From Patescibacteria group bacterium (GTDB lineage Bacteria > Patescibacteriota > Patescibacteriia > Magasanikbacterales > GWA2-37-8): a stretch of DNA of 64,000 bases. The position numbers and the translations under genes are program-made. The notes beneath the pieces were generated by a model, which was not told the DNA's origin, did not search any database, and saw nothing but the letters and a program-made list of their open reading frames with translations. This document shows, piece after piece, positions 24,342 to 50,480 of this stretch. The DNA is taken from positions 20,363 through 84,362 of the forward strand of contig JAQWDH010000001.1 in NCBI GenBank assembly GCA_028705565.1, written 5' to 3'. Numbering within the stretch: position 1 is the first letter of the stretch; every line of letters starts with the position of its first letter.

Positions 24342-26138
24342 ATGGCAATGAATGGAAAATTTATCAGAGGATTCGCGTTACTGGAGGTGGTAGTCGCCAC
24401 AGCCGTATTTTTATTGTTCGCGCTCGGTGTCTATGGAGGAACCCAGCTTATATTTAAAATCGTTTATCAATCGCGCATGCGAATTTTGGAAACTTCAATT
24501 TTAAGCGAGGAATTGGAAGTGGTTAGAAACTTAAAATTTGACGAAGTCGGCGTTGTCGGCGGAATACCGGACGGAGTTTTAGAGCATGAAAAAACCGTCA
24601 CGCGCAACAATACGATTTTCAATATTACAACCACGGTTCGCAATATTGACGACCCGTTTGACGGCATCATCGGCGGAACTCCGAATGATACCGCGCCGGC
24701 GGATTATAAATTGGCGGAGATGTCCATAATTTGTTCCAACTGCAATCAGCAAGAGCCGGTGATTTTAAGCACGCTTGTGTCCCCGAAAAATTTTGAAGGT
24801 GAAAGCGACAACGGCGCTCTCTTCGTTCATGTTTTTGATATGAACGGGTTGCCTGTAGTCGGAGCGAACATTCATATAGAAAACACGAACGCTGAGCCGG
24901 ATATTATTATCAATGAAGTGACGGACAATGACGGAATGTTGCGCGTGATAGATACGCCCACCGGCACTTTCAGCTATAATATCACCGTGAGCAAATCCGG
25001 ATATTCAAGCGATTACACAATTTCTCCGACATCGCAAAATCCGTATCCGACCAAATTGCCTTCCACCGTGGCAAGCCAATACATTACTGAAATTAATTTT
25101 TCCATTGATCATACGGGCAATATGCTTGTAAAAACTTTAAGCCCGTCGTGTTCAGCTTTGGCGAGCAAAACTTTCAGCATCTACGGCAATAAAATAATAG
25201 GCGTTGACCCGACAATTTATAAATTTGACGGTTCGCATATTACAGACGGTTCTGGCGAGAAAAATTTTGTCAACATGGAATGGGACCATTATTATTTAAG
25301 CGCGTCCGGCACGGCTTACGACCTCGCCGGTTCAATACCTATGTCGCCGGTACATTTAACTCCCGGTTTAAGCCAAGATGTTTCTTTAATTTTGCGCGCT
25401 CACACAGACAACTCGCTTTTGGTAAAAGTAAAGGATGCCGGAACCGGTCTGCCGCTTTCAGATGTTTTCGCGCGTTTAACAGGAACCGGATATGACGAAA
25501 GTTTATCAACGGATTTGGGTTATACTCGCCAGACAGATTGGTCAGGTGGAGGAGGGCAAAGCGATTTTATAAATGAAAATCAATATTTCATAGACAATGG
25601 AAATTTGGAAACCGATTCTCCGGATGGAGATTTAAAATTAAAAAAAGTAAGCTCGCGGTATTTAACGAGCGGCTGGCTTGAGTCGTCAACTTTTGATTTG
25701 GGAGCCGGCGTTAATTTTCGCAATATAATTTGGGAGCCGCTTGCTCAGCCGGAAGACACGGGAGTCAATTCCATTCTTTTTCAAATCGCGACTGACAACT
25801 CTCCGAATCCGGCATCGTGGGAATTTATCGGTCCGGATGGCGCTTCCACCACTTTCTACACCACGACTTCCACTTTAATTTATAACGGTCATAACGGCAG
25901 AAGGTATATGCGTTACCGAGTTTATTTAAGCACGGAAGACGACAGATACACGCCGATGTTGTCAGAAGCCGCGTTCACTTTTACGAACAATTGCACTCCT
26001 CCGGGTCAAGTTTTTTTCTACGGTTTTTCATCAGGAAATTATAATTTGGAAGTAAGCCGTTCTGGTTACAGTTCAAGCAGCGGACCGTTGGATATTTCCG
26101 GAAATATGGATGTGGTCGTTAATTTATCGCCGAGCTAG
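24342..26138 (+). CDS. Large prepilin-type protein (type IV pilin-like N-terminus)
   Basis: N-terminal class III signal KFIRGFALLEVVVATAVFLL (G/FxLxE cleavage/methylation motif); long beta-rich C-terminal domain. Confidence 0.6.
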   Translation: MAMNGKFIRGFALLEVVVATAVFLLFALGVYGGTQLIFKIVYQSRMRILETSILSEELEVVRNLKFDEVGVVGGIPDGVLEHEKTVTRNNTIFNITTTVRNIDDPFDGIIGGTPNDTAPADYKLAEMSIICSNCNQQEPVILSTLVSPKNFEGESDNGALFVHVFDMNGLPVVGANIHIENTNAEPDIIINEVTDNDGMLRVIDTPTGTFSYNITVSKSGYSSDYTISPTSQNPYPTKLPSTVASQYITEINFSIDHTGNMLVKTLSPSCSALASKTFSIYGNKIIGVDPTIYKFDGSHITDGSGEKNFVNMEWDHYYLSASGTAYDLAGSIPMSPVHLTPGLSQDVSLILRAHTDNSLLVKVKDAGTGLPLSDVFARLTGTGYDESLSTDLGYTRQTDWSGGGGQSDFINENQYFIDNGNLETDSPDGDLKLKKVSSRYLTSGWLESSTFDLGAGVNFRNIIWEPLAQPEDTGVNSILFQIATDNSPNPASWEFIGPDGASTTFYTTTSTLIYNGHNGRRYMRYRVYLSTEDDRYTPMLSEAAFTFTNNCTPPGQVFFYGFSSGNYNLEVSRSGYSSSSGPLDISGNMDVVVNLSPS

Positions 26139-26150
26139 TAGAATAGTATT

Positions 26151-26759
26151 ATGAATTTTGAATTTAATAAAAAAGGTTTTACGATTTTGGAGGCCATCGT
26201 GGCTGTCGCTATTTTCGCTTTGTTGGCGATAGCGATAATATCTCTTTATCTTTTCAGCGATTATTCAAAAAATGTCGTTTGGGAACAATTATCAACTCAA
26301 AATGAAGGCAGAAAAACCGCGCAGGATTTTGGGAACGAATTGCGCACCGCAAAAATTTCCGGCGTTGGAGCGTATCCTTTGGAATCGGCCGCGAGCCAGC
26401 AAATAATTTTTTATTCCGATATTGACGCTGACGGTTTGGCTGAGAGAGTCAGATATTTTAAAGATGCAACAAATTTTAAAAAAGGAGTGATTGAGCCGAG
26501 CGGGTCTCCTATTTCGTACAATCCGGCAAATGAAGCGGTAACAATAATCGCGCATGATGTTGCCAATGGAAGCGACCCTGTTTTTTATTATTATAATGAA
26601 AACTTTAGCGGCTCGGAAGAACCGCTTGCCCAGCCGATCAATGTGACACAAGTGAGAGTGGTAAAAATTTCATTGATTTTGGAAGAAGACCCGAATATGT
26701 CGCCCGTGCCTTTCCGCATTGAAGCGAAAACGATGATTAGAAATTTGAAAGGGAATTAA
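26151..26759 (+). CDS. Prepilin-type N-terminal cleavage/methylation domain protein (minor pilin-like)
   Basis: NKKGFTILEAIVAVAIFALL canonical prepilin motif. Confidence 0.7.
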   Translation: MNFEFNKKGFTILEAIVAVAIFALLAIAIISLYLFSDYSKNVVWEQLSTQNEGRKTAQDFGNELRTAKISGVGAYPLESAASQQIIFYSDIDADGLAERVRYFKDATNFKKGVIEPSGSPISYNPANEAVTIIAHDVANGSDPVFYYYNENFSGSEEPLAQPINVTQVRVVKISLILEEDPNMSPVPFRIEAKTMIRNLKGN

Positions 26760-26765
26760 ATAATT

Positions 26766-28154
26766 ATGTCAATTAGGAAGAAAAATTTTTTTAAATTGTT
26801 TTACGGAGACAAATCCGGCAGCATTTTATTGTTCGCTCTTGTTTTCGGTTCGCTCGCTTTTACTCTTATTGTTGTCGGCGTTTCGGGCTACGCGATTTTT
26901 GAAAATCGCGCTTCAACGCGAAAACATAATCGCGAGATGGCTTTTCAAATCGCCGATGCCGGCATAAATTATTACCGTTGGCATTTGGCGCACGATGACG
27001 ATGACTATCAAGACGGGACAGGGATTTCAGGTCCTTATGTTCATGAATATAAAGATAAAGACGGAAATGTTATCGGACATTTTTCTTTGAATATCACTCC
27101 GCCGGCGAGCGGTTCAACGGTTGTAACCGTGGAATCCACAGGATGGCTGGATACGCAGGTGGAAAGTTTAAGAATAATAAAAGCCAGAATAGGTTTTCCT
27201 TCTTTGACTGATTACGCTTTTTTGACTGACACGGATGTTTGGATAGGAGACACGGAAACAACGCATGGAAAATTTCATTCCAATGGCGGCATTCGTTTTG
27301 ACGGAGTTTGCGACGCGCCAGTCACAAGTATGATGCCGACTTATACTTGCAAAGTATTTCACGGATGCAGTAATCAAACCAGAGACGGGGTTTGGGGCGA
27401 TGGCGAACCGAGCGATTATTGGCAGTTTCCAATGCCAGAGGTTGATTTTGACGCGGTTACCGCCAAACTTGGAGAAATAAAGGAGGCCGCGGATCCTGAC
27501 AACGGCGGAATTTATTTATCTTCATCCGGAAAGCAAGGGTGGCATTTGCAATTTTTGGATAACGGAAAAATAAGCATCAGAAAAGTTAAAACAGCCGATT
27601 GTTATTGGGGCAAGGATATCGGCGACAGCCATCATCATTTATATTGCATAGACGCAAAAACTTTTGATACCGCGACTCTTTATGATATGCCGTCAAACGG
27701 TTATATTTATGTGGAAGACAATGTGTGGGTTGACGGAACAGTGAACGGACGCGCGACCATAGGCACGGCCGAAGGCAAGTCCATAATTATAAATGGCAAT
27801 ATCACTTATCACGCTAAAGATGGTAACCATGTTCTGGGTTTGATAGCCGACCAAAATATTTTAGTTCCATATAATTCCCCGAATGAATTGGAAATTGACG
27901 CGGCGCTTCTCGCTCATAGCGGCGCGGCTAAAAGGTATGATTATCCGGGAAACAAAAAGGATAATTTGTATATTTACGGTTCGGTCATAAGCGCGGGAAT
28001 TTGGACTTGGAGTTGGGCTTCCGCGGCAGGAGTGGTGACATCGGGTTATATAAATACGAACTCCACTTATGATTCCAATCTTTCTTACGGTCCTCCGCCG
28101 GGTTTTCCTGTTGGCAAGCAGTATGTTTTGATAAGTTGGGAAGTGATAAAATGA
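26766..28154 (+). CDS. Pilus-associated protein with PilX-N-like N-terminus
   Basis: N-terminal hydrophobic helix followed by an A..AdAGI motif; third gene of the prepilin operon. Confidence 0.4.
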   Translation: MSIRKKNFFKLFYGDKSGSILLFALVFGSLAFTLIVVGVSGYAIFENRASTRKHNREMAFQIADAGINYYRWHLAHDDDDYQDGTGISGPYVHEYKDKDGNVIGHFSLNITPPASGSTVVTVESTGWLDTQVESLRIIKARIGFPSLTDYAFLTDTDVWIGDTETTHGKFHSNGGIRFDGVCDAPVTSMMPTYTCKVFHGCSNQTRDGVWGDGEPSDYWQFPMPEVDFDAVTAKLGEIKEAADPDNGGIYLSSSGKQGWHLQFLDNGKISIRKVKTADCYWGKDIGDSHHHLYCIDAKTFDTATLYDMPSNGYIYVEDNVWVDGTVNGRATIGTAEGKSIIINGNITYHAKDGNHVLGLIADQNILVPYNSPNELEIDAALLAHSGAAKRYDYPGNKKDNLYIYGSVISAGIWTWSWASAAGVVTSGYINTNSTYDSNLSYGPPPGFPVGKQYVLISWEVIK

Positions 28155-28340: not shown

Positions 28341-29207
28341 ATGTCTCACATTAAAAAACTCGTTATACCGGTTGCCGGACTTGGCACAAGATTTTTGCCA
28401 GCCACTAAAGCGCAGCCGAAAGAAATGTTGCCGGTCGTGGATAAACCGATTATTCAATATGTCGTTGAAGAAGCGGTACGCGCCGGAATTGAGGATATTA
28501 TTCTTGTCACCGGTCCAAGCAAGCGCGCGGTGGAAGATCATTTCAGTCCGAATTATGAACTTTCAAATTGGCTGAAAAAACAAGGAAAAGACGAAATGGA
28601 AAAAGAAGTCGGCAAAATCGCTGAAATGGCGAATTTTATTTTTATTCGTCAAAAAGGCCCGTATGGCAACGGAACGCCCGTGCTTTGCGCGAAAAATATA
28701 ATCGGAGACGAACCTTTCGCGGTTGTATGGGGAGACGAGTTTTTTTACGCGGAAAAAAAACCGCAACTGAAACAATTGATTGATGTTTTTGAAAAATACG
28801 GCGACCCGGTTTTGACCGCGTATAAGGTGGACAAAGAAGGAACAAAAAAATACGGAATTTTAGACGGCTTGAAAATAGAAAAAGATATTTACCAGGTGAA
28901 AAACATCATAGAAAAACCAGGGCCGGAAAAAGCTCCGTCATTGCTTGCGAGCTTGGGCGGTTATATTTTAACGCCTGATATTTTTGAAGCGTTGGAAAGC
29001 ACAAAGCTTGGAAAAGACAATGAGCTTTGGCTTGTTGACGCGATTTTTAAACTTTTGAAAAAGAGGCCGATTTACGCGCGTTTGATTGATGGAGTTTATT
29101 ACGACACAGGCTCCAAACTCGGCTATCTTAAAGCAAATGTTGATTTCGCGTTGCGCGATAAAAAATTGGCGGAAGATTTTAGAAAATATCTTAAAAGTGT
29201 GATATAA
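28341..29207 (+). CDS. galU: UTP--glucose-1-phosphate uridylyltransferase
   Basis: VIPVAGLGTRFLPATKAQPKEMLPVVDKPIIQYVVEEA matches the GalU N-terminus; typical length. Confidence 0.85.
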   Translation: MSHIKKLVIPVAGLGTRFLPATKAQPKEMLPVVDKPIIQYVVEEAVRAGIEDIILVTGPSKRAVEDHFSPNYELSNWLKKQGKDEMEKEVGKIAEMANFIFIRQKGPYGNGTPVLCAKNIIGDEPFAVVWGDEFFYAEKKPQLKQLIDVFEKYGDPVLTAYKVDKEGTKKYGILDGLKIEKDIYQVKNIIEKPGPEKAPSLLASLGGYILTPDIFEALESTKLGKDNELWLVDAIFKLLKKRPIYARLIDGVYYDTGSKLGYLKANVDFALRDKKLAEDFRKYLKSVI

Positions 29208-29258: not shown

Positions 29259-30641
29259 ATGTTTAAAAAAGTTTTGTTAATTTTTTTGGCAAGCGTTTTT
29301 ATCACGACTGGATTCGGCTGTAAAACAGCGTCGCCGGAAGAACAGGCGGCGGCAAAGCCGGTTACTTTGGAATACTGGACGGTTTTTGACGATGTGGACG
29401 CGTTAAAAAGTTTGATTGCCAAATTTAAAATTGACCATCCGCAAATAACCGTGAATTTACGCCAGCTTCGTTATGAAGAATTATATCCGCTTTTGGTTGA
29501 AGAATTGGCGGAAGACAAGGGACCGGATATTATTTCAGTCCGCAATCGTTGGATGAAAGAATTTCAAACGAAATTAGCGTCTATGCCGGCGAGCGCGAAG
29601 ATAGCCCGCACGACAGTTGAAAAAGGAATGGTTGGCGAAAAAGCGATTATATCAATGGAAACGCAAAGTTTGCCGACAGTCAGCCAGATAGACAAAGAAT
29701 ATGTTTCCGCTGTAAAAAATGATGTTGTGATTGACGGAAAGGCGTATGGTTTGCCGTTATCTTTTGACACAATGGCGGTTTATTTTAATAAAGATTTATT
29801 GGACAGAGCCGGCGTAGCCGAAACGCCGACAAGTTGGGAAGATTTTCAAGCGGCTGTTAAAAAAATTACCAAATATAACAAGACCACCGGAAAAATAATT
29901 CAGTCAGGCGCGGCTTTGGGAACAGGCAATAATATACCGTCGGCCGAAGACATACTTTACATACTTTTCAAACAAAGCGGATTAAATTTCACCGACAGCT
30001 CCGGTAAAGCGATATTCAACTCCGTTACGCAATTCAGCGCGGGCGGAGAATCTCCCGCAATGGGCGTAATGAATTTTTATTCCGATTTTGCCAATTCAAC
30101 TCGCGATACATATACTTGGAACGAAGAAATGGGCAATGCTTTGGATAGGTTTGTAAACGGTTCGGTTGCTTTTTTCTTCGGTTATCAGCATCAATATTCC
30201 GTAATCAAAGGACTCGCTCCGCAATTGAATTTTGGCATTATCCCAATGCCGCAATTGAATCCGGAAAAACCGGTAAACGCCGCGAATTATTGGGTTCAAA
30301 GCGTGGTGTCAAAATCAAAATATCAAAATGAAGCGTGGGCGTTCATAAATTATATCGCTCATTCCAAAGCCAACAAAGAATATCTGGATCAGTCAGGGCG
30401 ATTAACGGCTATGCGAATTTATATTACAGAACAAAAAGATAATCCGGATTTGGACCCGTTTATTTCTCAATTGCTTGTCGCGGAAAGTTGGTATAAAGGT
30501 AAAAATTATGAATCAGCCGCGCGAGCGATTACCGATATGGCGCACGAATGGTTGCAGACACCGGCTGAACCGTCAAGAATTTTGGAATACAGGCAGGGAA
30601 TTTTGGACCGCGCCGCGGCAAAAGTGAATCAGACATTATAG
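29259..30641 (+). CDS. ABC transporter extracellular solute-binding lipoprotein (family 1, sugar-type)
   Basis: Lipobox (GFGC), SBP family-1 architecture. Confidence 0.55.
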   Translation: MFKKVLLIFLASVFITTGFGCKTASPEEQAAAKPVTLEYWTVFDDVDALKSLIAKFKIDHPQITVNLRQLRYEELYPLLVEELAEDKGPDIISVRNRWMKEFQTKLASMPASAKIARTTVEKGMVGEKAIISMETQSLPTVSQIDKEYVSAVKNDVVIDGKAYGLPLSFDTMAVYFNKDLLDRAGVAETPTSWEDFQAAVKKITKYNKTTGKIIQSGAALGTGNNIPSAEDILYILFKQSGLNFTDSSGKAIFNSVTQFSAGGESPAMGVMNFYSDFANSTRDTYTWNEEMGNALDRFVNGSVAFFFGYQHQYSVIKGLAPQLNFGIIPMPQLNPEKPVNAANYWVQSVVSKSKYQNEAWAFINYIAHSKANKEYLDQSGRLTAMRIYITEQKDNPDLDPFISQLLVAESWYKGKNYESAARAITDMAHEWLQTPAEPSRILEYRQGILDRAAAKVNQTL

Positions 30642-30672
30642 ATTGTAGGCAGTGGACGGTGGACGGTTGGCG

Positions 30673-30714
30673 ATGAATTATGAATTATGAATTATGAATA
30701 ATGAATTACGAATG
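30673..30714. repeat. Tandem heptanucleotide (ATGAATT) x ~6 spanning the start codon of the first pilin-like gene
   Basis: atgaatt atgaatt atgaatt atgaata atgaatt acgaatg, read directly. Confidence 0.85.
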
Positions 30715-31386
30715 ACAAAAATTTTTACATCAATCGCGGTTGTGTTTCTCGCGAGCGTTTTTTTCACATTTTATTCAGTTCCCGTCGCGCAGGCGGCGAA
30801 TAGGTGTTTTTGTTCCAGTAATTTGGAACAGGCAACCGCGGAAAATTTAACAGGGCATCGTTTTGACGCGACATGCACAACCAATAATTCGGAAGACACA
30901 TGCAACGGACAATCCGAAGCGATATGCGCTCGTCTTGATTTTGATTTTTGTTCCTGTTTGTTAAAAAATACGGATGAAAGTTGCGCGAACAATGTGAGCG
31001 CTTGGCGCGCAAGATATGAAACAATTCAAAGACAAAGCGCCGCGGATGAAAGCGAGGCATCGTCCGGAGGAATTGTCGGGGCGTTTTTGCCGAGATGCGC
31101 CACCGAAGATAATTTGAGCGGCGAATGCAGAAGCGTGGATGTTTTTATAATTTTGGCGATTAACATCGGCCGGTGGCTGTTTTCCATTATCGGCGCTTTG
31201 GCTTTAGGCGCGTTTGTTTTCGGCGGTTTTACTTTGGTGATGTCAAGCGGAAATCCTGAAGAAGTAAAAAAAGGAAAAAACATAATGATTGCCGCTGTAA
31301 CTGGGTTGCTCGTGGCTTTCGGCGCTTATCTTTTAATCAATTTTTTAGGCGATGCTGTTGGCGTAAAAGGGGAGTTTAAATTGTAA
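30694..31386 (+). CDS. VirB2/TrbC-like pilin paralogue 1 with Cys-rich ectodomain
   Basis: Signal peptide, Cys-rich middle region, C-terminal hydrophobic hairpin ...ALGALALGAFVFGGFTLVMSSGNPEEVKKGKNIMIAAVTGLLVAFGAYLL. Confidence 0.5.
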   Translation: MNNELRMTKIFTSIAVVFLASVFFTFYSVPVAQAANRCFCSSNLEQATAENLTGHRFDATCTTNNSEDTCNGQSEAICARLDFDFCSCLLKNTDESCANNVSAWRARYETIQRQSAADESEASSGGIVGAFLPRCATEDNLSGECRSVDVFIILAINIGRWLFSIIGALALGAFVFGGFTLVMSSGNPEEVKKGKNIMIAAVTGLLVAFGAYLLINFLGDAVGVKGEFKL

Positions 31387-31389
31387 TTT

Positions 31390-32109
31390 ATGCGTTCATT
31401 GTTTTTCTTTTGTTTCATTTTTATAATATTTTTTGCGTTTTCAACGCCTGTTTTTGCCGGTAATGTTTTGGTTCCATACGGTTGCGTTCAGCGCGAGAGA
31501 ATCGTAAACAACAGCGGAAGTGAATCTTTTCGCGAAACAAGTTGCGATGAAAAATCTTTAACATGCGACCCGACCGCGAGTATGAGTTGTCAGCCGATAT
31601 GCATCGGAGAAAATATATTGATGCGATGGGGAGTTTGTTCCGGTGGGGCAGTTGTTTATAAATGTGAAAGTAAATTAACCGGCGAATGTTCCACAGTCAC
31701 GCTTAGAGAAAATATAGGAGTTTTTAGCGCTTGCGTCGCCGGAACCGTGGAAAGAGGAGATTGTCCATCGGCCAGTCCGGAAGTTATTGAAAACACGCAA
31801 GAGGAATCCGCCGGAGGACAATCGTCGGCTTCGGGTATTGATTTGCGCGCGGAAGCCCGAAGTTTGAACCCGATGAATTTTGGAGATATATCGGAGCTTG
31901 TTGGTCGCGCGATAAACGCGTTGATGGCTTTTATCGGCTCAATAACTTTGGTCCTTTATATTTTCGCCGGATTTTTGTGGATGACCGCGGCAGGAGCCAA
32001 AGAAAAAATTGTAAAAGCAAAAAGCATATTTATTTGGACAAGTATGGGTGTCGTCGTGATGCTTGGCAGTTATATTTTGGTAAAATTCGTTTTTGATATT
32101 TTGGGATAA
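31390..32109 (+). CDS. VirB2/TrbC-like pilin paralogue 2 with Cys-rich ectodomain
   Basis: Signal peptide, 14 or more Cys, C-terminal ...LVLYIFAGFLWMTAAGAKEKIVKAKSIFIWTSMGVVVMLGSYILV. Confidence 0.5.
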   Translation: MRSLFFFCFIFIIFFAFSTPVFAGNVLVPYGCVQRERIVNNSGSESFRETSCDEKSLTCDPTASMSCQPICIGENILMRWGVCSGGAVVYKCESKLTGECSTVTLRENIGVFSACVAGTVERGDCPSASPEVIENTQEESAGGQSSASGIDLRAEARSLNPMNFGDISELVGRAINALMAFIGSITLVLYIFAGFLWMTAAGAKEKIVKAKSIFIWTSMGVVVMLGSYILVKFVFDILG

Positions 32110-32134
32110 ATGAAATATAAGACGACTTATAAAT

Positions 32135-32176
32135 TGTCATTGCGAGGAGCGAGCGAAGTAAGCGACGAAGCAATCC
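32135..32176. repeat. Half-element TGTCATTGCGAGGAGCGAGCGAAGTAAGCGACGAAGCAATCC of the TGTCAT repeat family
   Basis: Shared TGTCATTGCGAG terminus. Confidence 0.45.
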
Positions 32177-32239
32177 CATGGTTCGGTAGTGCCGGCAATG
32201 TATTTCTGAAACATTAATAGTCGGAATAACAAAAATTTT

Positions 32240-32836
32240 ATGTTCAGAAAGAAAACAAAAGTTTTAACATCAATCGCGATTGTATTTTTTCTCGGTGTTT
32301 TTTTTGCTTTTTCGGCTGTTCCGGCGAAAGCGGAAATTTCCGAAAGTTCATCAAGTAACGACGAGGCAAGTTTTATGTGCGTTTGCGCCGACAGTTGTGA
32401 TAATTACACGACCCAAGCCGCGGCAGAAGCGAATTGCCAGATGTCCGGATGCCAGCCGCTTTCAGGAACTTGCGCGATAGAATCAACAACACAACAACAA
32501 TCATTGCCAAATCAATCGGAAGAAAGCGCGAGCGGGCAAACGGAAGAGTCCGGTTCTTCCGGAGAAATTCGTCTTGTAAATCCTTTGAGCAGCGGAGCTA
32601 CGGACTTGCCGGTTATTTTGGGGCAAGTTATTAAAGGCGCTTTGGGCGCGCTCGGTTCGTTGGCTTTGTTGATGCTCGTGTGGGGCGGTTTTCAATGGCT
32701 CACTTCCGCCGGCAATCCGGAAAAAGTAAAAAAAGGAACGCAAACAATGATTTGGGCCGCTGTTGGTGTTGCAATCGCTTTAGCGAGTTATTTCTTGGTG
32801 TCAACTGTAATAAAGGCTTTAAGCGGAAGTATTTAA
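32240..32836 (+). CDS. VirB2/TrbC-like pilin paralogue 3 with Cys-rich ectodomain
   Basis: Signal peptide; C-terminal ...LLMLVWGGFQWLTSAGNPEKVKKGTQTMIWAAVGVAIALASYFLV. Confidence 0.5.
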   Translation: MFRKKTKVLTSIAIVFFLGVFFAFSAVPAKAEISESSSSNDEASFMCVCADSCDNYTTQAAAEANCQMSGCQPLSGTCAIESTTQQQSLPNQSEESASGQTEESGSSGEIRLVNPLSSGATDLPVILGQVIKGALGALGSLALLMLVWGGFQWLTSAGNPEKVKKGTQTMIWAAVGVAIALASYFLVSTVIKALSGSI

Positions 32837-32882
32837 GTGATATAATAAACTTGAATTAGAATTCATTTTGGGTTTCACCAAT

Positions 32883-32915
32883 TGTCATTCTGAGCAAAGC
32901 GAAGAATCTCTGTCC
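32883..32915. repeat. Left arm of a MITE-like element (TGTCATTCTGAGCAAAGCGAAGAATCTCTGTCC)
   Basis: Shares the TGTCAT...ATCTCTGTCC structure. Confidence 0.5.
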
Positions 32916-32976
32916 AATTGGCAAAATAACAGCATGAGTTATTAGTTAATCATTAATTTAGAGAGGGGGTGAGAAT

Positions 32977-33360
32977 ATGATAAAGAAATTTTTAGTGTTC
33001 GCGGTATTGGCGTCTGTTTTGTTATTGGCGACGCCGGTTCTCGCTCAAACGAATCCTTGCGGCGCGAATGACCCGTTATGTTTACAGCCAGCCCAACAAA
33101 TAGGATTAGGCACTTCCGATATACGCGTTACCATAGCTAGAATAATAAAAGTGGCCATGGGACTTTTGGGTATAGTTGCGGTCGTGATAGTTTTGATAGG
33201 CGGTTTCACTTGGATGACTGCCGGCGGTGATGAAACAAAAACCGGAAATGCCAAAAAATGGATTTTCGGCGGCGTAATCGGCTTGGCAATTATATTGTCG
33301 GCTTACGCGTTGACCAGTTTTGTCATTAACAGCTTAATGAGCGCTACAACAGGAGTATAA
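32977..33360 (+). CDS. VirB2/TrbC-like pilin paralogue 4
   Basis: Signal peptide; ...MGLLGIVAVVIVLIGGFTWMTAGGDETKTGNAKKWIFGGVIGLAIILSAYALTSFV. Confidence 0.55.
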   Translation: MIKKFLVFAVLASVLLLATPVLAQTNPCGANDPLCLQPAQQIGLGTSDIRVTIARIIKVAMGLLGIVAVVIVLIGGFTWMTAGGDETKTGNAKKWIFGGVIGLAIILSAYALTSFVINSLMSATTGV

Positions 33361-33512
33361 AATTAAAAAGCGGATAGGCGCGTTTGTTTCGTCGGCATAA
33401 TCATGGGAAACAGGCGCGCCGTTCTCGCTCGTTGATTTTTTAATGGTTTTATTTTTAAAATATTCGGACGAATTTTTAATAATGGAACGATTAAAAAAAG
33501 GAATTATTTTTT

Positions 33513-34091
33513 ATGAAAAAAAGAGCTTTAAAAATATTTTTGTTCGCCGCGGTTTTGGTTTTAGTCGCGCCGATTTTCGTTTTTGCCACAAACGGAAGCG
33601 ATAAATACGGAATTGAAAGAGCGGCTGACACGGCCGGACTGCAAAGAAGCATCGGAGGCGAAACGACAGTGCCCGGAGTAATCGGCTCCGTTATATCAGC
33701 CGGACTCGCTCTGCTCGGCGTATTGTTTTTTCTTTTGATTTTATACTCCGGTTTTATTTGGATGAAAGCGATGGGCAAATCGGATGAAGTGACAAAAGCG
33801 AAAGATACCATGGAAGCGGCGGTTGTCGGTTTGGTGCTTGTGCTCGCGGCTTACGCTTTGGCGAATTTCGTTTTTGGAAGTTTGACAGGTGGTGGCGAAG
33901 AAGTACAAACGACAACCGCGCCTTGCGCGCAAAGGACTGAGAGTAATTGTTTATCGGGGGGAGAGTGTATGTATGACAGTGTAAATGGTTGTTATAGTAC
34001 TGAAATAATACCTTGTGAAGAAAGAACAGAAAGCAATTGCGTCGCCGATGGTGAGTGTTTTTATGCTGATAACGAATGTTCTCCAATTTAA
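33513..34091 (+). CDS. VirB2/TrbC-like pilin paralogue 5 with C-terminal Cys-rich tail
   Basis: Signal peptide; ...LALLGVLFFLLILYSGFIWMKAMGKSDEVTKAKDTMEAAVVGLVLVLAAYALANFV followed by a tail with 8 Cys. Confidence 0.5.
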   Translation: MKKRALKIFLFAAVLVLVAPIFVFATNGSDKYGIERAADTAGLQRSIGGETTVPGVIGSVISAGLALLGVLFFLLILYSGFIWMKAMGKSDEVTKAKDTMEAAVVGLVLVLAAYALANFVFGSLTGGGEEVQTTTAPCAQRTESNCLSGGECMYDSVNGCYSTEIIPCEERTESNCVADGECFYADNECSPI

Positions 34092-34114
34092 AAAATAACT
34101 TTTATTTAAAATTT

Positions 34115-34513
34115 ATGAAAAAATATATAGCAGTTTTAATTGTTTTTTCATTTTTGATTTTATTGCCGATGGCTTGCGCGGAAGCGAAAGGGCTCGGAGA
34201 TGCTATGGGAAATTTACAACAGGCCGCAGGCGATACTGGCCTTGAAAGCAATCTTACATCAAGCGTTGGAACTATAATAAAAATCGCGTTGGGAACGCTC
34301 GGCACCGTGTTTTTGATTTTAATGGTTTATGCCGGTTATCTTTGGATGACAGCTGCCGGAGATGAAAAGAAAACAACAAAAGCGAAAGATATAATCAAAG
34401 CCGCGGTAATAGGTCTTGTCATCACGGTATCAGCCTATGCCATTACTTCTTTTGTAACGACAAAAATTGCGGGCGGAAGCAGCGCGGCATCGGAGGCTGG
34501 CGCGTCAAATTAA
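34115..34513 (+). CDS. VirB2/TrbC-like pilin paralogue 6
   Basis: Start set at MKKYIAVLIV; ...LGTLGTVFLILMVYAGYLWMTAAGDEKKTTKAKDIIKAAVIGLVITVSAYAITSFV. Confidence 0.55.
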   Translation: MKKYIAVLIVFSFLILLPMACAEAKGLGDAMGNLQQAAGDTGLESNLTSSVGTIIKIALGTLGTVFLILMVYAGYLWMTAAGDEKKTTKAKDIIKAAVIGLVITVSAYAITSFVTTKIAGGSSAASEAGASN

Positions 34514-34542
34514 AATTTAAACCAATTTTTAATTTTATATTT

Positions 34543-34938
34543 ATGAATAAAAAAATATTGCATGGTTTGGCGATTTTAAGTTTGGCGTTCGCGATTTTGG
34601 CTCCGACAGCGTCTTTGGCCGTGTTAAACATCAACGAGCTTACCGAGGGTGTAGCGCAGGAAGCGGGATATGAACCTGCCACCGGTGGCGGAAGTTTGGC
34701 GGCGACTGTCGGAAACATAATTAGAATCGCTTTATCAATTCTTGGCACCGTGTTTTTAGTGCTTATTCTTTACGCCGGATTTTTGTGGATGACCGCGGCA
34801 GGGGACGAAAAAAAGACAACCCAGGCGAAAAGCATTATCACTTCTTCGGTGATAGGGTTGCTTATTATTTTGTCGGCTTACGCCATTACTTATTTTGTGA
34901 CGAATTCTCTCCTTGAAGCTACAACAGCGCAGTATTAG
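34543..34938 (+). CDS. VirB2/TrbC-like pilin paralogue 7
   Basis: ...LSILGTVFLVLILYAGFLWMTAAGDEKKTTQAKSIITSSVIGLLIILSAYAITYFV, nearly identical core to paralogue 6. Confidence 0.55.
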   Translation: MNKKILHGLAILSLAFAILAPTASLAVLNINELTEGVAQEAGYEPATGGGSLAATVGNIIRIALSILGTVFLVLILYAGFLWMTAAGDEKKTTQAKSIITSSVIGLLIILSAYAITYFVTNSLLEATTAQY

Positions 34939-36029
34939 CCGCCCAAAAGATTTTTGAAGATAATTTCGTTTGGGTTCGCGCAATTAAAATTATTATTTTC
35001 AGAAGGCGTTTTAAGCAACGCCTTTTTTGTTTCAGCGACAAGTTCTTCAATCGTGTCAACGCGAACGCCAAAATTGTTTTTTACCAAAAATTCGGCGTTA
35101 TGTTCTTCCTGCCCCGGTATTGGATTGATAATAATCATCGGTTTGTTTAAAAAAAGACATTCGGCCGTTGTCATGCCGCCGGGTTTGGTTATAACAACTT
35201 TCGCGATTCTTTTCCATTCGTCAATGTTGTCCGCGTATTCCAAAGGTATGTAGCGCGTTGTCGGTATTTCCTTGATATTTTTTAATCCGCGATATAATTC
35301 TTTGTTATTTTTTCCGGATATGGCAATGAGGTTAAGATTTCCGATTTCCAAAATTTTTTCCGCCGCTTCCGTCATATCAATGGAATTTATCCCTCCCACC
35401 TGTGATGGTTTTAAAAGTATCGTCGGCCATTCTTTTTTTATTCCCAATTTATTTTTCAGTTCCGCGATATTTTTTTGTTTAAAAAATTCCGGATTAACCG
35501 GCAATCCGCTCGCTAACGCTTTCATTCCCTTTTTTTCAAAAGTTTTTTTCATTTCTTCTGTGGCGACAAAAAATTTTCTGGCGGATGAGGAAAACCAAAA
35601 TTTATGCGCGCGATAGTCGGTGATGACGACATCAATCGGAATTTTAAAATCCGAAGGCAAAAAATGAGGCGGTAAAAAATAAGTGGACACTATTAAATCC
35701 GGTCGGCTTTCTTTTATTTTTTTTAAAAATTTGCCTGACACTACGCGAAACATTGATTTCATTTTATGCGGAAGAGAGTCGGGCAAGAGAAAACTGTCGG
35801 TGGCGTAATAGGCGGCTCCGTAAAGATTCGGGAAGTGCCGTATCAAAAAATCATAAAAAGACGAGAAAAAATTTTTCATCAATTTTCCAGTGTAATCGTT
35901 GATGTCAACATGCTCAAATTCAATTAGCGGATAATTTTTTCGTCCATAACAAAAAAGAGCGTTGGCGGCGGCAGTATGCCCGGAACCGGCCGAACACGAA
36001 ACAAAAAGTATTTTTTTTATTGAAGACAT
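34935..36029 (-). CDS. MGDG-synthase/UgtP-like diacylglycerol glycosyltransferase (GT28 family)
   Basis: N-terminal KILFVSCSAGSGHTAAANAL motif of the MGDG_synth N-domain plus a GT-B C-terminal half. Confidence 0.55.
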   Translation of the reverse strand: MSSIKKILFVSCSAGSGHTAAANALFCYGRKNYPLIEFEHVDINDYTGKLMKNFFSSFYDFLIRHFPNLYGAAYYATDSFLLPDSLPHKMKSMFRVVSGKFLKKIKESRPDLIVSTYFLPPHFLPSDFKIPIDVVITDYRAHKFWFSSSARKFFVATEEMKKTFEKKGMKALASGLPVNPEFFKQKNIAELKNKLGIKKEWPTILLKPSQVGGINSIDMTEAAEKILEIGNLNLIAISGKNNKELYRGLKNIKEIPTTRYIPLEYADNIDEWKRIAKVVITKPGGMTTAECLFLNKPMIIINPIPGQEEHNAEFLVKNNFGVRVDTIEELVAETKKALLKTPSENNNFNCANPNEIIFKNLLGG

Positions 36030-36034
36030 AATCG

Positions 36035-36106
36035 GGTGGCTACTGGGAGTTGAACCCAGACCAGCGGGACCACAACCCGCTGTTCTACCGCTAAACTATA
36101 GCCACC
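36035..36106 (-). tRNA. tRNA-His (anticodon GTG) with encoded G-1 and C73
   Basis: G-1/G1TGGCTA acceptor pairing TAGCCAC+C; anticodon stem GCGGG/CCCGC with loop TTGTGGT. Confidence 0.75.
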
Positions 36107-36188
36107 ATGTATTGTTAATTTACGACTTTTTTGAATTTTAATCAACCCTGTCTGTTGCCATTGGCGCATAAATCGGAGGGCAGATCAG

Positions 36189-36260
36189 TGTCCCCAGTAG
36201 GAATCGAACCTACATATCCAACTTAGAAGGCTGGTGTTCTATCCATTGAACTATGGGGAC
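36189..36260 (-). tRNA. tRNA-Arg (anticodon TCT)
   Basis: Acceptor GTCCCCA/TGGGGAC, anticodon stem CCAGC/GTTGG with loop CTTCTAA, T-arm GTAGG-TTCGATT-CCTAC. Confidence 0.8.
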
Positions 36261-36382
36261 GAAATTTGTTTAAAACAAAACATACCAAATATAATAATAC
36301 ATTTTGGCGAAAAAATCAAGGGAGTGGTATAATAAACGGATGATGGACGGGCGGACTATGGACTATGGACTGTAGACGATGC

Positions 36383-36396
36383 TGTCATCCCGAATG
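36383..36396. repeat. Fragment of a TGTCATCCCGAATG element, preceded by a GGACTATGG repeat tract (36340-36375)
   Basis: Read directly. Confidence 0.4.
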
Positions 36397-36484
36397 CAGC
36401 AGTAGTCCTTTTTTCAATTTCAAAATCCTAATTTCAAATTTCCAATAAAGCCAAAAATTCAAATGTCAAAAAATAATTTGAAGT

Positions 36485-36826
36485 ATGTTTAAAAAATTTT
36501 TATTAATTTTATCGGTTGGTATTTTGATTTGCGTTCCGGCGTTCGCGCGCGATTATGGTTTGCAAGAAACCGGCTCTGTCGCGGAATATTCGCAATCTTC
36601 CGTTTATAAATCTGCCAACAGCATTGTGTCGGTGTTTTTGTCGATTTTGGCGATTTTATTTTTAGGTCTGATGCTGTATTCGGGAATTCGCTGGATGACG
36701 GCGCACGGCAATGAGGAAATGTTGACCAAAGCCAAAAATATAATGGAAGCCGCGATAATCGGATTGATTATAGTAGTGGCGTCTTACGCAATTTCAAATT
36801 TTATTCTTGAACGCCTTATACAATAG
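36485..36826 (+). CDS. VirB2/TrbC-like pilin paralogue 8 (separated from the array by the UgtP-like gene and tRNAs)
   Basis: ...FLSILAILFLGLMLYSGIRWMTAHGNEEMLTKAKNIMEAAIIGLIIVVASYAISNFI. Confidence 0.55.
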   Translation: MFKKFLLILSVGILICVPAFARDYGLQETGSVAEYSQSSVYKSANSIVSVFLSILAILFLGLMLYSGIRWMTAHGNEEMLTKAKNIMEAAIIGLIIVVASYAISNFILERLIQ

Positions 36827-36858
36827 ACAATAGTCCGCAGGCCAATTAACCCGCCACC

Positions 36859-36892
36859 GGACAGAGATCCCTCTCTGCCGTTCGGGATGACA
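36859..36892. repeat. Right arm of a MITE-like element (GGACAGAGATCCCTCTCTGCCGTTCGGGATGACA)
   Basis: Matches positions 11-43. Confidence 0.6.
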
Positions 36893-37032
36893 GTATCGTC
36901 CACCGTCCACCGTATTGACATTTTTTGGGAATAGGAGTAATATTGAGGTGTTTAATAATTCCGCGTTATTTATAAGCGGGACCGAACTGTTAGGAAACAT
37001 GCTCTTAACGAGCTCGGTTAACAAAAGCATGT

Positions 37033-45925: not shown

Positions 45926-46488
45926 ATCTCTCTTGTCATAAAAATCTCTCTTTTTAGGAGAGCCAAGTCCAAAATAAAATCGCGAAAGCAAGTTTGGACC
46001 TCTGGGTAAAGTCCTTAACGGACGCTTTAATATCAAATAAAAAATGTTACAGATATTAAATATTTACTTAGAGTGTTCAAGCGGCTGACGCCATACTTTT
46101 GGCGAATAGTTTTGAAGGCCGCTGTCAAGCGGTTCTTTATTTTTTAAAAATGATTTTGAACGGAGCAAAAAATTTTCGCGAATGAAAATTTTTTGCCTCG
46201 TTCAAAACGATTGAAAAGAATTGAGCGGGTGTAAGAACTTTGACAATCAATTAGTAAGTTTCAACAAAAAGGGTAGAACTCCCGCGCTGATTTTATTCGC
46301 GCGGGAAAAATAAGAAAGCACAATTTAGTGTTTTCGTAGTATGCAATTTTAACAAGAGCGCATGGCGGATGCCTTGACACCAAAAGACGATGAAGGACGC
46401 TGCAGGGTGCGATAAGCCTCGGAGAGGTCCCAAGCAACCTTTGACCCGGGGATTTCCAAATGGGGAAACCCGCCGGTGCGTAGCACCG

Positions 46489-46600
46489 GAATTTACCAAT
46501 TTACAATTTTCAATTTACAATCAACTCCAATTATCAATAATTTATTGAAAATTGCCGCATTGTAAATTTATTGAAAATAATTGAAAATTCCAGTGTTATG
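46489..46600 (+). other. 23S intervening sequence 1 (AT-rich CAATTT-repeat hairpin in the E. coli helix ~130-150 region)
   Basis: Insertion relative to conserved flanks GGGGAAACCC ... CTGAATACATAGG. Confidence 0.55.
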
Positions 46601-47154
46601 CATCGGCACTGTACACTGAATACATAGGTGTATGGAGAAGACCTGGCGAAGTGAAACATCTCAGTAGCCAGAGGAAAATAAATCTATAGAGATTCCCTTA
46701 GTAGTGGCGAGCGAAAAGGGAAAAGCTTAAACCATATAAGTGTTTCTTTGAGAATGATTGGTCTTAGGATTAGTCTAGTATTAAAGATTAAAGGGATAGG
46801 TCGTTGCTTATATGGGGTTGTAAGATATTGGCGCTGACTGCCTACTCAGTCAGATGATTGAATAACCTTCCTAGTAGAATGCTCTGGAAAGAGCAACCAT
46901 AGAGGGTGATAGTCCCGTACGCGAAAGGAGTTACAAAATCATAGCCGTTATTCTTGAGTAGGACGGAACTCGTGAAATTCCGTCCGAAGCCGGGCCGACT
47001 ATGGTCCAAAGCTAAATACTTTTGGTGATCGATAGTGGACAAGTACCACGAGGGAAAGGTGAAAAGCAGCCCGGAGAGGGCGATGAAATAGTATCTGAAA
47101 CCGTGCGTTTACAAAGAGCGGAAGGTCAACCACATCTCGCTTTGTTTGATGTGG

Positions 47155-47215
47155 AATTTCCAATTTCCAATTTATTTAGTTATTGATTTTTGGAGTTTGG
47201 TAATTCTTACACGTC
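47155..47215 (+). other. 23S intervening sequence 2 (GGAATTTCCAATTTCCAATTT... at the helix-25 region)
   Basis: Insertion at a classical IVS site; same motif family. Confidence 0.5.
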
Positions 47216-47757
47216 AAATGAAGTGAGATGTGGCGACCGACCGTGTTCCTATTGAAGAATGAGCCTGCGAGTGTATGTGTGCCGCTTTGCTTAAGGGCCT
47301 ATGGTCCGGAGGCGTAGCGAAAGCGAGTCTTAACGGGCGTATACCTTGTATCTTTATGGTGCGAGGTTTGTGGCACGTATATAACCCGAAACCGGGTGAG
47401 CTATCCATGACCAGGATGAACCCCGCCGAAAGGCGGGGGGAGGTCCGAACCCACGCGCCGTGCAACACGCGGGGATGAGTTGTGGATGGGAGAGAAATTC
47501 TAATCGAACTCGGTGATAGCTGGTTCTCCTCGAAATAGCTGTAGGGCTAGCCTCAAATGTTTCTATCGGTGGTAGAGCACTGGATGAAAATCGGGTCCTT
47601 CGGGATACCATTTTCAATCAAACTCCGAATACCGGTAGCCAAAATTTGGGAGTCAGACAGTGACGGCTAAGCGCCATTGTCAAAAGGGAAACAGCCCAGA
47701 TCGCAAGCTAAGGCCCCTAAATCCATGTTAAGTGTAACAAAGGTGGTTCTAGTTCTC

Positions 47758-47794
<37 letters not shown>

Positions 47795-47924
47795 TAAAGA
47801 AAGCGTAACAGCTCACTGGTCAAGAGTTTTAGCGCCGAAAATGTACGGGACTCAAACATGGTGCCGAAGCTGCGGACTATCCGTGCTTCACTAATGTTCA
47901 GCACAAATTTTCAAGTATCCTGCC

Positions 47925-48045
47925 TACCGGCAGGTAATTATCAATTTTCAATCAATTATCCAATTATCAATTTTTAAATTTCATTTTGGGTCATTAAAAT
48001 TTATTGAAAATTGTAAATTGTAAATTTTGTGGCGAGCGTTAGCGA
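47925..48045 (+). other. 23S intervening sequence 3 (helix-45 region, ~E. coli 1170)
   Basis: AT-rich CAATTATC/CAATTTT repeat hairpin between conserved blocks. Confidence 0.5.
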
Positions 48046-48552
48046 GGCACGGGTATTGGTAGAGGAGCGTTCCTAACTGCGCAGAAGTCCTAGGCGTGAG
48101 CCGGGATGGAGTGTTAGGAAGCGAGAATGCAGGCATAAGTAGCAAAAAGGCAGGTGAGAATCCTGCCCGCCGAAAACCCAAGGTTTCCTGGGCAACGAGA
48201 ATCGACCCAGGGTTAGCCGATCCTAAGGCCAGCCCGTCGCAAGGCGGGGTAACCGATGGAAGAGCTGGTTAATATTCCAGCGCTATATGCAGTTTGGTTT
48301 TTACTGCGCATCTTTAATTTTTAAGCGTGTTTTGGTTATACGCGCGCCGCAAGGCGGAGACAAAGCCCTCGGGTGGAGTCAACTTAAAATAACAAGGTGC
48401 CTAGAAAAGGTAAAAATCGTTAAGCTGCATGTAATCGTACCGTAAACCGACACAGGTGGGTAAGTCGAGTAGACTAAGGCGTATGAGAGAACCCTCGTTA
48501 AGGAACTCTGCAATACAGCGGCCGTAACTTCGGGATAAGGCCTGTCCGACCG

Positions 48553-48692
48553 TGCCTCACTGCGTTTGACGCGGAATGACCAATATAATTTTCAATTACC
48601 AATTTTCAATTTAAGAGTCCGACCGAGTCGGACACAATAGTTGATCATTGGAAATTGGAATTTGGAAATTCCGCCCGAGCATAGCGAGGTGC
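48553..48692 (+). other. 23S intervening sequence 4, a ~140-bp element (copy A)
   Basis: CCTCACTGCGTTTGACGCGGAATGACCAAT...GTCCGACCGAGTCGGAC...GGAAATTCCGCCCGAGCATAGCGAGGTGCGG. Confidence 0.6.
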
Positions 48693-48817
48693 GGTTGGAT
48701 TACAACAAAAGACCTCAAGCGACTGTTTACCAAAAACACAGCTCCCTGCAAAAGCGTAAGCTGAAGTATAGGGGGTGATGCCTGGCCAGTGTCAGAACGT
48801 TAAAGAGAGAGGTGAGC

Positions 48818-48957
48818 CGTACCTCACTGCGTTTGGTACGGAATGACCAATTTTCAATTACCAATTTTCAATTTAAGAGTCCGGTCGAGCCGGACACAAT
48901 AATTGATCATTGGAAATTGGAATTTGGAAATTCCGCCCGAGCATAGCGAGGTGCGGC
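48818..48957 (+). other. 23S intervening sequence 5, a near-identical second copy (copy B) of the 140-bp element in a different helix
   Basis: About 95% identical to copy A; separated by genuine 23S sequence (GACTGTTTACCAAAAACACAG). Confidence 0.6.
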
Positions 48958-49569
48958 GTAGCCTTGAACTGAAGCGCTGATGAACGCCGGCGGTAACTAT
49001 AACCGTCCTAAGGTAGCGCAATTCCTTGTCGGGTGAGTTCCGACGCGCATGAATGGTATAACGATTTGAGGACTGTCTCAACGAGGGACTCAGTGAAATT
49101 GCAAGGAAGGTGAAGATGCCTTCTACCCGCAACTAGACGAAAAGACCCCGTGAAGCTTTACTACAACTTGGCATTGGTATAAGGTTAAATATGTTCAGAG
49201 TAGGTGGAATCCCGACTTAGTCGGGAGACAATGAGACACCACCCTTACTTAATTTTATGCCTAATCTTCCGACTTGAATCAGCCGGAGGAGACAGTGTCT
49301 GGTGGGTAGTTTAACTGGGGCGGTTGCCTCCTAAAATGTAACGGAGGCGTTTACAAAGGTCAGCTTAGCTCGGATGGAAATCGAGCTGGACGTGCAAACG
49401 CAAAAGCTGGCTTTACTGCAAGGGCTACAACCCGAGCAGTCGCGAAAGCGGAAGTTAGTGAACCGACCATCCTATATAGGAAGGTGGAAGATCAACGGAT
49501 AAAAGCTACTCCGGGGATAACAGGCTGATCTAGCCCGATAGTCCACATAGACGGCTAGGTTTGGCACCT

Positions 49570-50420: not shown

Positions 50421-50467
<47 letters not shown>

Positions 50468-50480
50468 TGGCTGTTCGCCA

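Follow-up and report, generated by a model that had tools for sequence, protein, structure and literature searches.

What do the pilin arrays of Patescibacteria build, and why does a single genome carry so many divergent copies? The question is raised by a locus in a 64,000-nucleotide stretch of contig JAQWDH010000001.1 from a Patescibacteria group bacterium (positions 20,363 to 84,362 of the forward strand), hereafter the window. Patescibacteria are obligate epibionts. Between approximately 30.7 and 36.8 kb of the window, eight plus-strand open reading frames (ORFs) encode VirB2-like pilin paralogues of 113–239 amino acids, here designated P1–P8. The results presented here make the question more specific. 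Rather than being interchangeable, the copies are distinct, old and ordered subunit types with strictly conserved cores; what varies is restricted to modules added on the outside, probably disulfide bonded. A fairly probable explanation is that the eight genes form an ordered VirB2-like pilin set, in which short members are structural and extended members display disulfide-rich contact modules, and that the product is built by a type IV secretion system (T4SS).

Arrays of this kind are already known for Patescibacteria, and the locus is a further example. In the part of the survey by Quinonero-Coronel et al. (2025; PMC12102498) drawn on here, which searched with PF18895 and PF04956, VirB4 was present in 2,417 of 3,035 Patescibacteria assemblies. 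VirB2-like pilins were present in 1,948 of the VirB4-bearing assemblies, in 1,135 of which a pilin was near virB4. The same part of the survey describes 441 arrays of 2–11 pilin genes from 383 Patescibacteria assemblies, with a mean identity of approximately 25%, mainly in Microgenomatia and Saccharimonadia. The locus is an array as defined there, with seven genes in tandem and one more past a protein gene and two tRNA genes. In Southlakia epibionticum, the one species of the group open to genetics, the T4SS is essential and so is a pilin series within its cluster (SEML1_0006-0019 region; Wang et al. 2023; PMC10633639). A 2025 review (PMC12857230) regards this as the first possible example of conjugative-type pili among monoderms. 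Taken alone, the window contains an expected feature of a Candidate Phyla Radiation (CPR) genome that is in part already annotated: the NCBI annotation names P4 (MDD4476584.1) a "pilin" and P2 (MDD4476582.1, PHY40_00260) a "hypothetical protein".

The eight genes are listed below. Scores are given for PF18895 (T4SS_pilin; gathering cut-off 26.6 bits), for other families where relevant, and for a hidden Markov model (HMM) of the paralogues' own core.

30694–31386, plus strand: P1, 230 amino acids; PF18895 36.0 bits, core HMM 87.9 bits; signal peptide, 120-residue N-terminal ectodomain with 10 Cys, and a hairpin core that is the most divergent of the eight
31390–32109, plus strand: P2, 239 amino acids; PF18895 17.5 bits (below cut-off), core HMM 101.7 bits; signal peptide and 140-residue N-terminal ectodomain bearing 10 Cys, then the hairpin core
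32240–32836, plus strand: P3, 198 amino acids; PF18895 42.3 bits; N-terminal ectodomain containing 6 Cys, plus an acidic linker rich in Ser and Glu
32977–33360, plus strand: P4, 127 amino acids; short canonical paralogue; PF18895 39.0 bits, PF04956 25.6 bits
33513–34091, plus strand: P5, 192 amino acids; PF18895 27.6 bits; C-terminal tail of two 4-Cys repeats, with all 8 Cys at residues 138–189, past helix 2
34076–34513, plus strand: P6, 145 amino acids; PF18895 39.1 bits, NF045849 39.7 bits
34543–34938, plus strand: P7, 131 amino acids, without Cys; PF18895 35.7 bits; ratio of nonsynonymous to synonymous substitution rates (dN/dS) 0.02
36485–36826, plus strand: P8, 113 amino acids; detached short paralogue; PF18895 38.1 bits

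P1–P7 lie in tandem, and P8 is separated from them by a minus-strand GT28 gene and the genes for tRNA-His and tRNA-Arg. The true start of P6 is likely at 34115, where the sequence (MKKY) resembles a signal peptide. The start of P2 follows the stop of P1 by 3 nt, and the gaps between P5 and P6 and between P6 and P7 are 23 and 29 nt; this tight spacing suggests co-transcription. The open frame of P1 begins at 30694, with an alternative start at 30712. An earlier reading made from the letters of the window (the sequence-only reading) had placed the start at 30673, which is instead the first ATG of a heptamer repeat, (ATGAATT)x5.9, from which the frame soon meets a stop codon. P4 is alone among the array genes in being preceded by a strong Shine-Dalgarno sequence, GAGGGGGTGA.

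All eight paralogues align across a core of approximately 75 residues, with pairwise core identities of 23–64% and P6 and P7 as the nearest pair (64%). The core HMM scored P1–P8 at 88–112 bits, and the next best score among the 385 ORFs of the window was 3.5 bits; the window therefore contains exactly eight copies. The sequence-only reading had described eight small secreted proteins with a common C-terminal two-helix core, and the ORFs, the alignment and the core HMM bear out this description, with all eight aligning in the core it had claimed. Analysis of hydropathy and motifs also found the leader and the two hydrophobic helices in all eight. Each paralogue has a signal-peptide-like N-terminus with an AxA-type motif, for which cleavage is predicted, followed by two hydrophobic helices of approximately 25–33 residues joined by a loop of 7–15 residues rich in Lys, Glu and Asp. 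A leader, two hydrophobic helices and a short basic loop are the architecture of VirB2-type pilins.

Profile searches place the proteins in a specific family. Seven of the eight scored above the gathering cut-off of PF18895 (27.6–42.3 bits) with full-length coverage of the profile. P2 alone fell below it, yet it can be aligned over the core, and precomputed PF18895 matches exist for its orthologues. In NCBIfam, seven of the eight matched best to NF045849, the Mbov_0395 pilin-like conjugal transfer protein of a Mycoplasma integrative and conjugative element (ICE). Its cut-off of 40 bits was reached by none: P6 scored 39.7 bits, six others scored 17.5–33.5 bits, and P2 gave no match. The best match to PF04956 (TrbC/VirB2) was P4, at 25.6 bits (E = 1.4e-5) over profile positions 10–96 of 98, followed by P8 at 13.8 and P3 at 12.7 bits; the rest gave no match. 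A precomputed table lists PF04956 for some close homologues and for P4 itself. An hhalign comparison set a 131-sequence profile of the P4 type against annotated VirB2 from Agrobacterium, Sinorhizobium and Acetobacter plasmids. The two aligned in register at the G-T/S-D motif that precedes helix 1, at the G-x-x-W-M that closes it, and through helix 2. Overall, P1–P8 are PF18895 members and probable distant homologues of VirB2/TrbC. The VirB2/TrbC pilin identity given in the sequence-only reading thus holds in the sense of homology, by PF18895 in seven of eight and by hhalign, while the best family is PF18895 and not PF04956. An AlphaFold2 model of P4, based on the 131-sequence alignment, is a helical hairpin (residues 49–81 and 86–125) with block-mean predicted local distance difference test (pLDDT) scores of 86–97. 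A phage origin was rejected, as no PHROG match was found.

The eight types are ancient, judging from related loci, and their order is kept across genera. The nearest genomes among 185,579 species representatives were metagenome-assembled genomes (MAGs) of Magasanikbacteria, Falkowbacteria and Uhrbacteria type, with 39–66% identity to P7; the set of representatives does not include the species of the window. Scans with P7, P6 and P4 led to 80 related loci, 79 of which contained 415 pilin-domain ORFs, and approximately 54 of the loci hold arrays of 2–12 pilin-domain genes. Each relative was assigned reciprocally to the best-matching window paralogue. The order of types is 1,2,3,4,5,6,7,7,8 in loci L003 and L008, and 1,2,3,4,5,5,6,6,7,...,8 in L006 and L042. 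Another subclade has the order 2,[SBP],1,3,4,4,5,...,7, where SBP is the gene of a solute-binding protein described below. The detached position of P8 behind the GT28 gene is kept in L006, L008, L042, L061 and L081. Similarity between orthologues is at least as high as that between paralogues within a genome; for example, P4 is 64% identical to its counterpart in L008. With types and order kept across genera, the array looks like a fixed, subfunctionalized set and not a fast-switching repertoire.

The pattern of substitution is in accord with this view. A sister strain (L082; JGI 3300029288, also in NCBI) has the same eight genes at 94–99% amino acid identity, and dN/dS was estimated by the Nei-Gojobori method between the window and this near-identical strain. 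Individual paralogues gave values of 0.02–0.19, pooled cores 0.05, pooled ectodomains 0.11 and signal peptides 0.36, compared with 0.06 for nine flanking (housekeeping) genes. None of the eight paralogues showed any sign of diversifying selection in this comparison. Purifying selection in all paralogues argues against antigenic variation driven by substitution. The sequence-only reading had suggested antigenic or functional variation of a surface filament or adhesin set; the low dN/dS and the conserved order do not support the antigenic part, while it is still plausible that such a set has diversified in function. P4 had 975 homologues, and its orthologues are 60–75% identical. As the best-conserved type, with the strongest ribosome-binding site and a dN/dS of 0.04, P4 is the candidate major subunit.

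The paralogues differ most conspicuously in their Cys-rich segments. P1–P8 contain 10, 11, 6, 2, 8, 1, 0 and 1 Cys per ORF, respectively, and 10, 10, 6, 2, 8, 0, 0 and 0 after removal of the signal peptide. These counts replace the 8–14 Cys per segment of the sequence-only reading, which was correct in placing the extensions N-terminally in P1–P3 and C-terminally in P5, and in calling the segments unrelated: the four have no mutual similarity by BLAST. All mature Cys of the window paralogues lie before helix 1 or past helix 2, and their numbers are even. The same is seen in 353 relatives, where 925 of 947 mature Cys are outside the core, and where relatives with at least two Cys have even counts in 106 cases and odd counts in 2 (binomial p = 4e-29). 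Moreover, one module family (LCNAPGQG..I.CCK.K) is N-terminal in L025 and L027 and C-terminal in L029. The location of the Cys, their parity and the occurrence of a module at either end together argue that both termini are on the same oxidizing side of the membrane and that the Cys are paired. Such an arrangement agrees with the N-out/C-out topology of VirB2-type pilins. The ectodomain Cys are probably disulfide bonded.

The modules turn over rapidly in comparison with the cores. P3 differs from its counterpart in the sister strain by a 363-bp in-frame indel corresponding to a 121-residue Cys-rich module, located directly after the signal-peptide cleavage motif and missing from the window. Eight of the nine amino acid differences between P5 and its sister-strain counterpart are inside the Cys-rich tail. 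The N-terminal domain of P2 is hypervariable across 37 homologues. Among 168 ectodomains of relatives, 73 of 100 BLAST clusters were singletons, though the cores align readily. A search of the P5 tail against 1.84 billion representative proteins returned its own orthologue only, plus two spurious repeat proteins, one of which resembles NBPF/Olduvai repeats. The comparisons suggest that diversity arises mainly as entire ectodomain modules are gained, lost or replaced in the course of evolution, and not through rapid switching or through positive selection on point changes. Four of the eight copies thus bear surface modules that change quickly and have the look of decorations for binding a host.

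Two neighboring genes also recur beside the array in related loci. A gene directly upstream encodes a family-1 solute-binding lipoprotein, and the gene that separates P7 from P8 encodes a glycosyltransferase.

29259–30641, plus strand: family-1 solute-binding lipoprotein (SBP) gene (SBP_bac_1/SBP_bac_8)
34935–36029, minus strand: GT28 glycosyltransferase gene, similar to monogalactosyldiacylglycerol (MGDG) or diglucosyl-diacylglycerol synthase (PF06925, PF04101)

Homologues of the SBP are encoded in 28 related loci, and in 25 of these a pilin-like gene starts −3 to +69 nt past the SBP stop. The P1 type directly follows the SBP gene in 19 related loci, and in six loci the SBP gene is between P2-type and P1-type genes. 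In Falkowbacteria-like loci the SBP-P1 pair is kept together, with the remaining array approximately 5 kb away. The SBP gene is tightly linked to the array and is possibly in the same operon. It is an orphan without an adjacent ABC (ATP-binding cassette) permease gene, and is coupled to or embedded in the pilin array across several genera. GalU is encoded at 28341–29207 and lies upstream in 23 related loci. The context as a whole is of a housekeeping kind, with GalU, SBP, the array, a glycolipid-type glycosyltransferase, rpsO and pnp.

Relatives also possess a second conserved type of locus, in which the hairpin is fused to giant adhesin-like proteins. It comprises LepB, HisRS, a small ORF, a protein of 590–700 residues and a protein of 2,255–3,243 residues, and is found at L012 7785–16591, L014 3645–15103, L026 8022–19618 and approximately 20 further sites. 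In both large proteins, an N-terminal PF18895 domain with a score over the threshold precedes Big_5, TIG and Big_7 domains and Cys-rich repeats; the larger proteins have 76–166 Cys. These hairpin-adhesin fusions hint at a way in which very large adhesins might be displayed by ultra-small cells. At the head of the fusion locus is the gene for a signal peptidase I. TrbC of RP4 is matured by a LepB-like peptidase (TraF).

A model for the array can be proposed from these results. Each protein would be exported by Sec and its signal peptide removed, leaving a membrane-embedded two-helix hairpin whose short basic loop would face the cytoplasm and whose two ends would be exposed outside. The short and conserved P4, P6, P7 and P8 would serve as the structural subunits from which an MPF-FATA-like T4SS, of the type encoded in approximately 80% of Patescibacteria assemblies, would most likely assemble a filament or a platform in the membrane. 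P1, P2, P3 and P5 would be minor subunits, in which the hairpin carries disulfide-rich modules as surfaces for contact with or adhesion to host cells. The model predicts a major-subunit role for P4 and minor, adhesive roles for the extended paralogues, termini on the outside with their Cys paired, and a functional partnership with the SBP.

Comparison with known systems clarifies what is familiar in this model and what is not. Like the arrays described in other Patescibacteria, those of the same phylum with PF18895 domains, the array is in tandem with non-pilin interruptions and encodes small Sec-type proteins, here from eight genes with 23–64% core identity. Unlike them, this array is not beside virB4 or other T4SS genes, and none was seen beside approximately 54 related arrays in a crude screen; the SBP lipoprotein gene and GalU adjoin instead. 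The part of PMC12102498 drawn on here makes no mention of Cys-rich terminal modules, paralogue order or hairpin-adhesin fusions. Nor were the type order, the even number of Cys, the exchange of modules at either terminus, the SBP linkage or the hairpin-adhesin fusions found in the literature searched, which is incomplete in coverage. The pilins of PF04956 (the Agrobacterium T-pilin VirB2, RP4 TrbC and F TraA) share the leader, the two helices, the basic loop and the termini outside. They differ from the proteins of the window, which have ordinary signal peptides of 21–35 residues, no adjacent virB3 or virB4, and a monoderm envelope. To our knowledge, classical VirB2/TraA pilins do not carry large disulfide-rich domains at their termini. 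The VirB2 paralogues of Bartonella and Anaplasma phagocytophilum are likewise tandem divergent copies at one locus for which surface diversification has been proposed. Those copies are discussed as immune-evasion variants, whereas the types described here are ancient, ordered and under purifying selection, with the variation in appended modules. Mbov_0395 and MMCAP2_0565 of Mycoplasma ICEs (NF045849) are also from monoderms and have an MPF-FATA-type context, as does the Patescibacteria T4SS, but they are single ICE genes and not chromosomal arrays, and all eight paralogues score below the cut-off of their family. In type IV pili, a conserved polymerization module carries variable, often disulfide-stabilized domains, and one major subunit is accompanied by several co-encoded minor subunits. 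The resemblance to type IV minor pilins is one of analogy only, as these have an unrelated fold and machinery, a single N-terminal helix and processing by a prepilin peptidase.

Several results weigh against the model of a T4SS-built set of pilins. The PF04956 cut-off of 27.9 bits was reached by none of the eight paralogues; P4, the best, fell short at 25.6 bits. The hhalign match of the P4-type profile to genuine VirB2 is modest, with a probability of only 38% (E = 3.4e-4). A PDB profile search with the eight paralogues returned chance matches to membrane proteins only (E > 1), and a Foldseek search of the P4 hairpin against the PDB returned generic helical hairpins only (E > 1). The helical hairpin is too simple for fold comparison to decide pilin membership; the fold is compatible with VirB2 but does not discriminate. 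The structure prediction of a Cys-rich domain suggested by the sequence-only reading succeeded in part: the hairpin of P2 was modelled with a pLDDT of approximately 80, and its N-terminal domain, with short beta strands, reached only 35–68. The Cys-rich domains were thus not modelled with confidence, and their fold and disulfides are inferred. No T4SS gene was found in the 64-kb window when all ORFs of at least 150 residues were searched against Pfam, in agreement with the absence of VirB4, VirB6 and other T4SS core genes noted in the sequence-only reading, and contigs of near-identical strains showed none in the 10-kb flanks either. No VirB4-like Walker-A protein or conserved family was found within 10 kb of approximately 54 related arrays by a crude screen of size and motif position, made with no VirB4 profile. 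With no T4SS genes near the arrays, the link to a T4SS in this clade is one of homology alone. Finally, no filament has been reported for any member of the family in the literature searched.

The lack of T4SS genes near this array and the approximately 54 related ones, as far as the crude screen reaches, would be expected if the hairpins were T4SS-independent anchors for surface display, possibly oligomeric, that present Cys modules, Ig-domain adhesins and perhaps the SBP at the cell surface and form no pilus. The housekeeping surroundings are consistent with such anchors, as are the coupling of the SBP gene to the array or its place within it, the fusion of the hairpin to giant Ig-domain proteins, and the fact that a pilin is near virB4 in only 1,135 of 1,948 assemblies in the part of PMC12102498 drawn on here. 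T4SS-independent anchoring is the main alternative but a rather unlikely one, given that the family is homologous to conjugative pilins, that the array of the one experimental case (PMC10633639) is inside a T4SS cluster and essential along with it, and that eight ordered paralogues with near-invariant cores exceed the needs of a plain anchor. It is very unlikely, at the level of the family itself, that P1–P8 match the pilin profile only by hydrophobic composition and are small membrane proteins with two helices but no kinship to pilins, for example of a holin-like or transporter-accessory kind. Hairpins are structurally non-specific, the paralogues give weak sub-threshold matches to many membrane families, and the PDB search was empty. 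Composition does not account for seven of eight full-length matches above a curated Pfam threshold, for a P4 match that spans nearly all of PF04956 (positions 10–96 of 98), or for family-wide motifs (G-x-x-W-M-T-A-x-G, K-A-K and S/A-Y-A) that go beyond hydrophobicity; nor was a holin or any other phage match found in PHROGs.

An explanation based on antigenic or phase variation would treat the paralogues as alternative surface variants, one or few of which are expressed at a time to evade recognition by the host or by phage. The core identities of 23–64%, the ectodomain modules that differ between close strains, and the published analogy of the Bartonella and Anaplasma VirB2 paralogues are in its favor. 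So are the (ATGAATT)x5.9 repeat that overlaps the start of P1 and the differences between strains in the P1 5' region and the repeat-laden spacers. This explanation is nonetheless improbable: purifying selection is near the housekeeping level in all eight, types and order are kept across genera, and the tight spacing of P1-P2, P5-P6 and P6-P7 suggests that these genes are co-transcribed. No silent cassettes were found, and the inverted repeat at P8 is not kept in the sister strain. Only one candidate for a switching device emerged, the heptamer repeat where P1 begins, and the locus does not have the properties of an antigenic or phase-variable family.

The T4SS-built set of structural and decorated pilins is thus preferred, and a wider, tentative reading may be considered as well. 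The patescibacterial hairpin could be a general carrier, with approximately eight fixed types in a heteropolymeric filament of a monoderm, with rapidly exchanged disulfide-rich or Ig-domain cargo, from 55-residue knots to 3,000-residue adhesins, at either outside terminus, and with an operon-borne SBP. The product would be a modular organelle for attachment to a host or for uptake and not a conjugation pilus, uncoupled from T4SS genes in this clade. This generalization is speculative and, at present, would be an unlikely choice if a single account had to be made.

The glycosyltransferase gene is noted as a neighbor only. The GT28 protein scored 137 bits with NF010135, below the cut-off, and the gene is at the same position in the six closest relatives. 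GalU, which forms UDP-glucose, and the glycolipid-type GT28 bracket the array. Conjugative pili are protein-lipid polymers. A glycolipid partner for the pilin array is conceivable, but this is pure speculation.

Repeats are frequent in and around the array. At 30652–30713, the heptamers (GTGGACG)x2.3 and (ATGAATT)x5.9 occupy the place of the 190-nt SBP-P1 spacer of the sister strain. They also replace its first P1 codons (MFGKKTK...), such that the N-terminus of P1 in the window is atypical (MNNELRMTK...). The tract at the start of P1 could be a slipped-strand site or strain-specific repeat junk. The spacers at 32130–32215, 36338–36394 and 36823–36913, and those at 10740–10870 and 15270–15400 of the sister-strain locus, contain small palindromic elements resembling miniature inverted-repeat transposable elements, for example TTGTCATTGCGAGGAGCGAGCGAAG...CTCGCAATGACAA and ...CTGTCATCCCGAA. 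The two near-identical strains differ in which of these elements they have and in how complete the elements are. A 29-nt inverted repeat (90% complementary) surrounds P8 in the window only. It was considered as an invertible switch at P8 and rejected, as the left arm is a different repeat element in the sister strain.

Genes for type IV pili are also near the array. At 24342–28154 are genes for a 598-residue protein, a 202-residue pseudopilin with a prepilin N-methylation motif and a 462-residue protein, and in the six closest relatives all three keep their synteny with the array. PilM, PilC and PilB are encoded upstream, just past the start of the window, as seen in L088 (1–3907).

Further from the array, the minus strand at 6198–10862 encodes a 1,554-residue secreted protein with Laminin_G_3, GH123-like, Big_13 and PG_binding_1 domains. 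The gene is missing from the sister strain, which has only 144- and 82-residue ORFs at this site, between a 223-residue ORF and an AI-2E transporter gene. It looks like a strain-specific indel of a surface protein gene. The 23S rRNA gene at 46342–50806 is 4,465 nt long, compared with 2,925 nt for the model, owing to an insertion of approximately 1.5 kb that encodes a LAGLIDADG_2 homing endonuclease (154.7 bits; ORF 49641–50252). A 23S insertion bearing a LAGLIDADG gene fits CPR genomes. The 5S rRNA gene is at 51025–51131; the rRNA genes appear unlinked because no 16S gene is upstream of the 23S gene in the window. Many third-party annotation MAG records with arrays of the Patescibacteria type are titled "uncultured Gammaproteobacteria bacterium" and look mislabelled.

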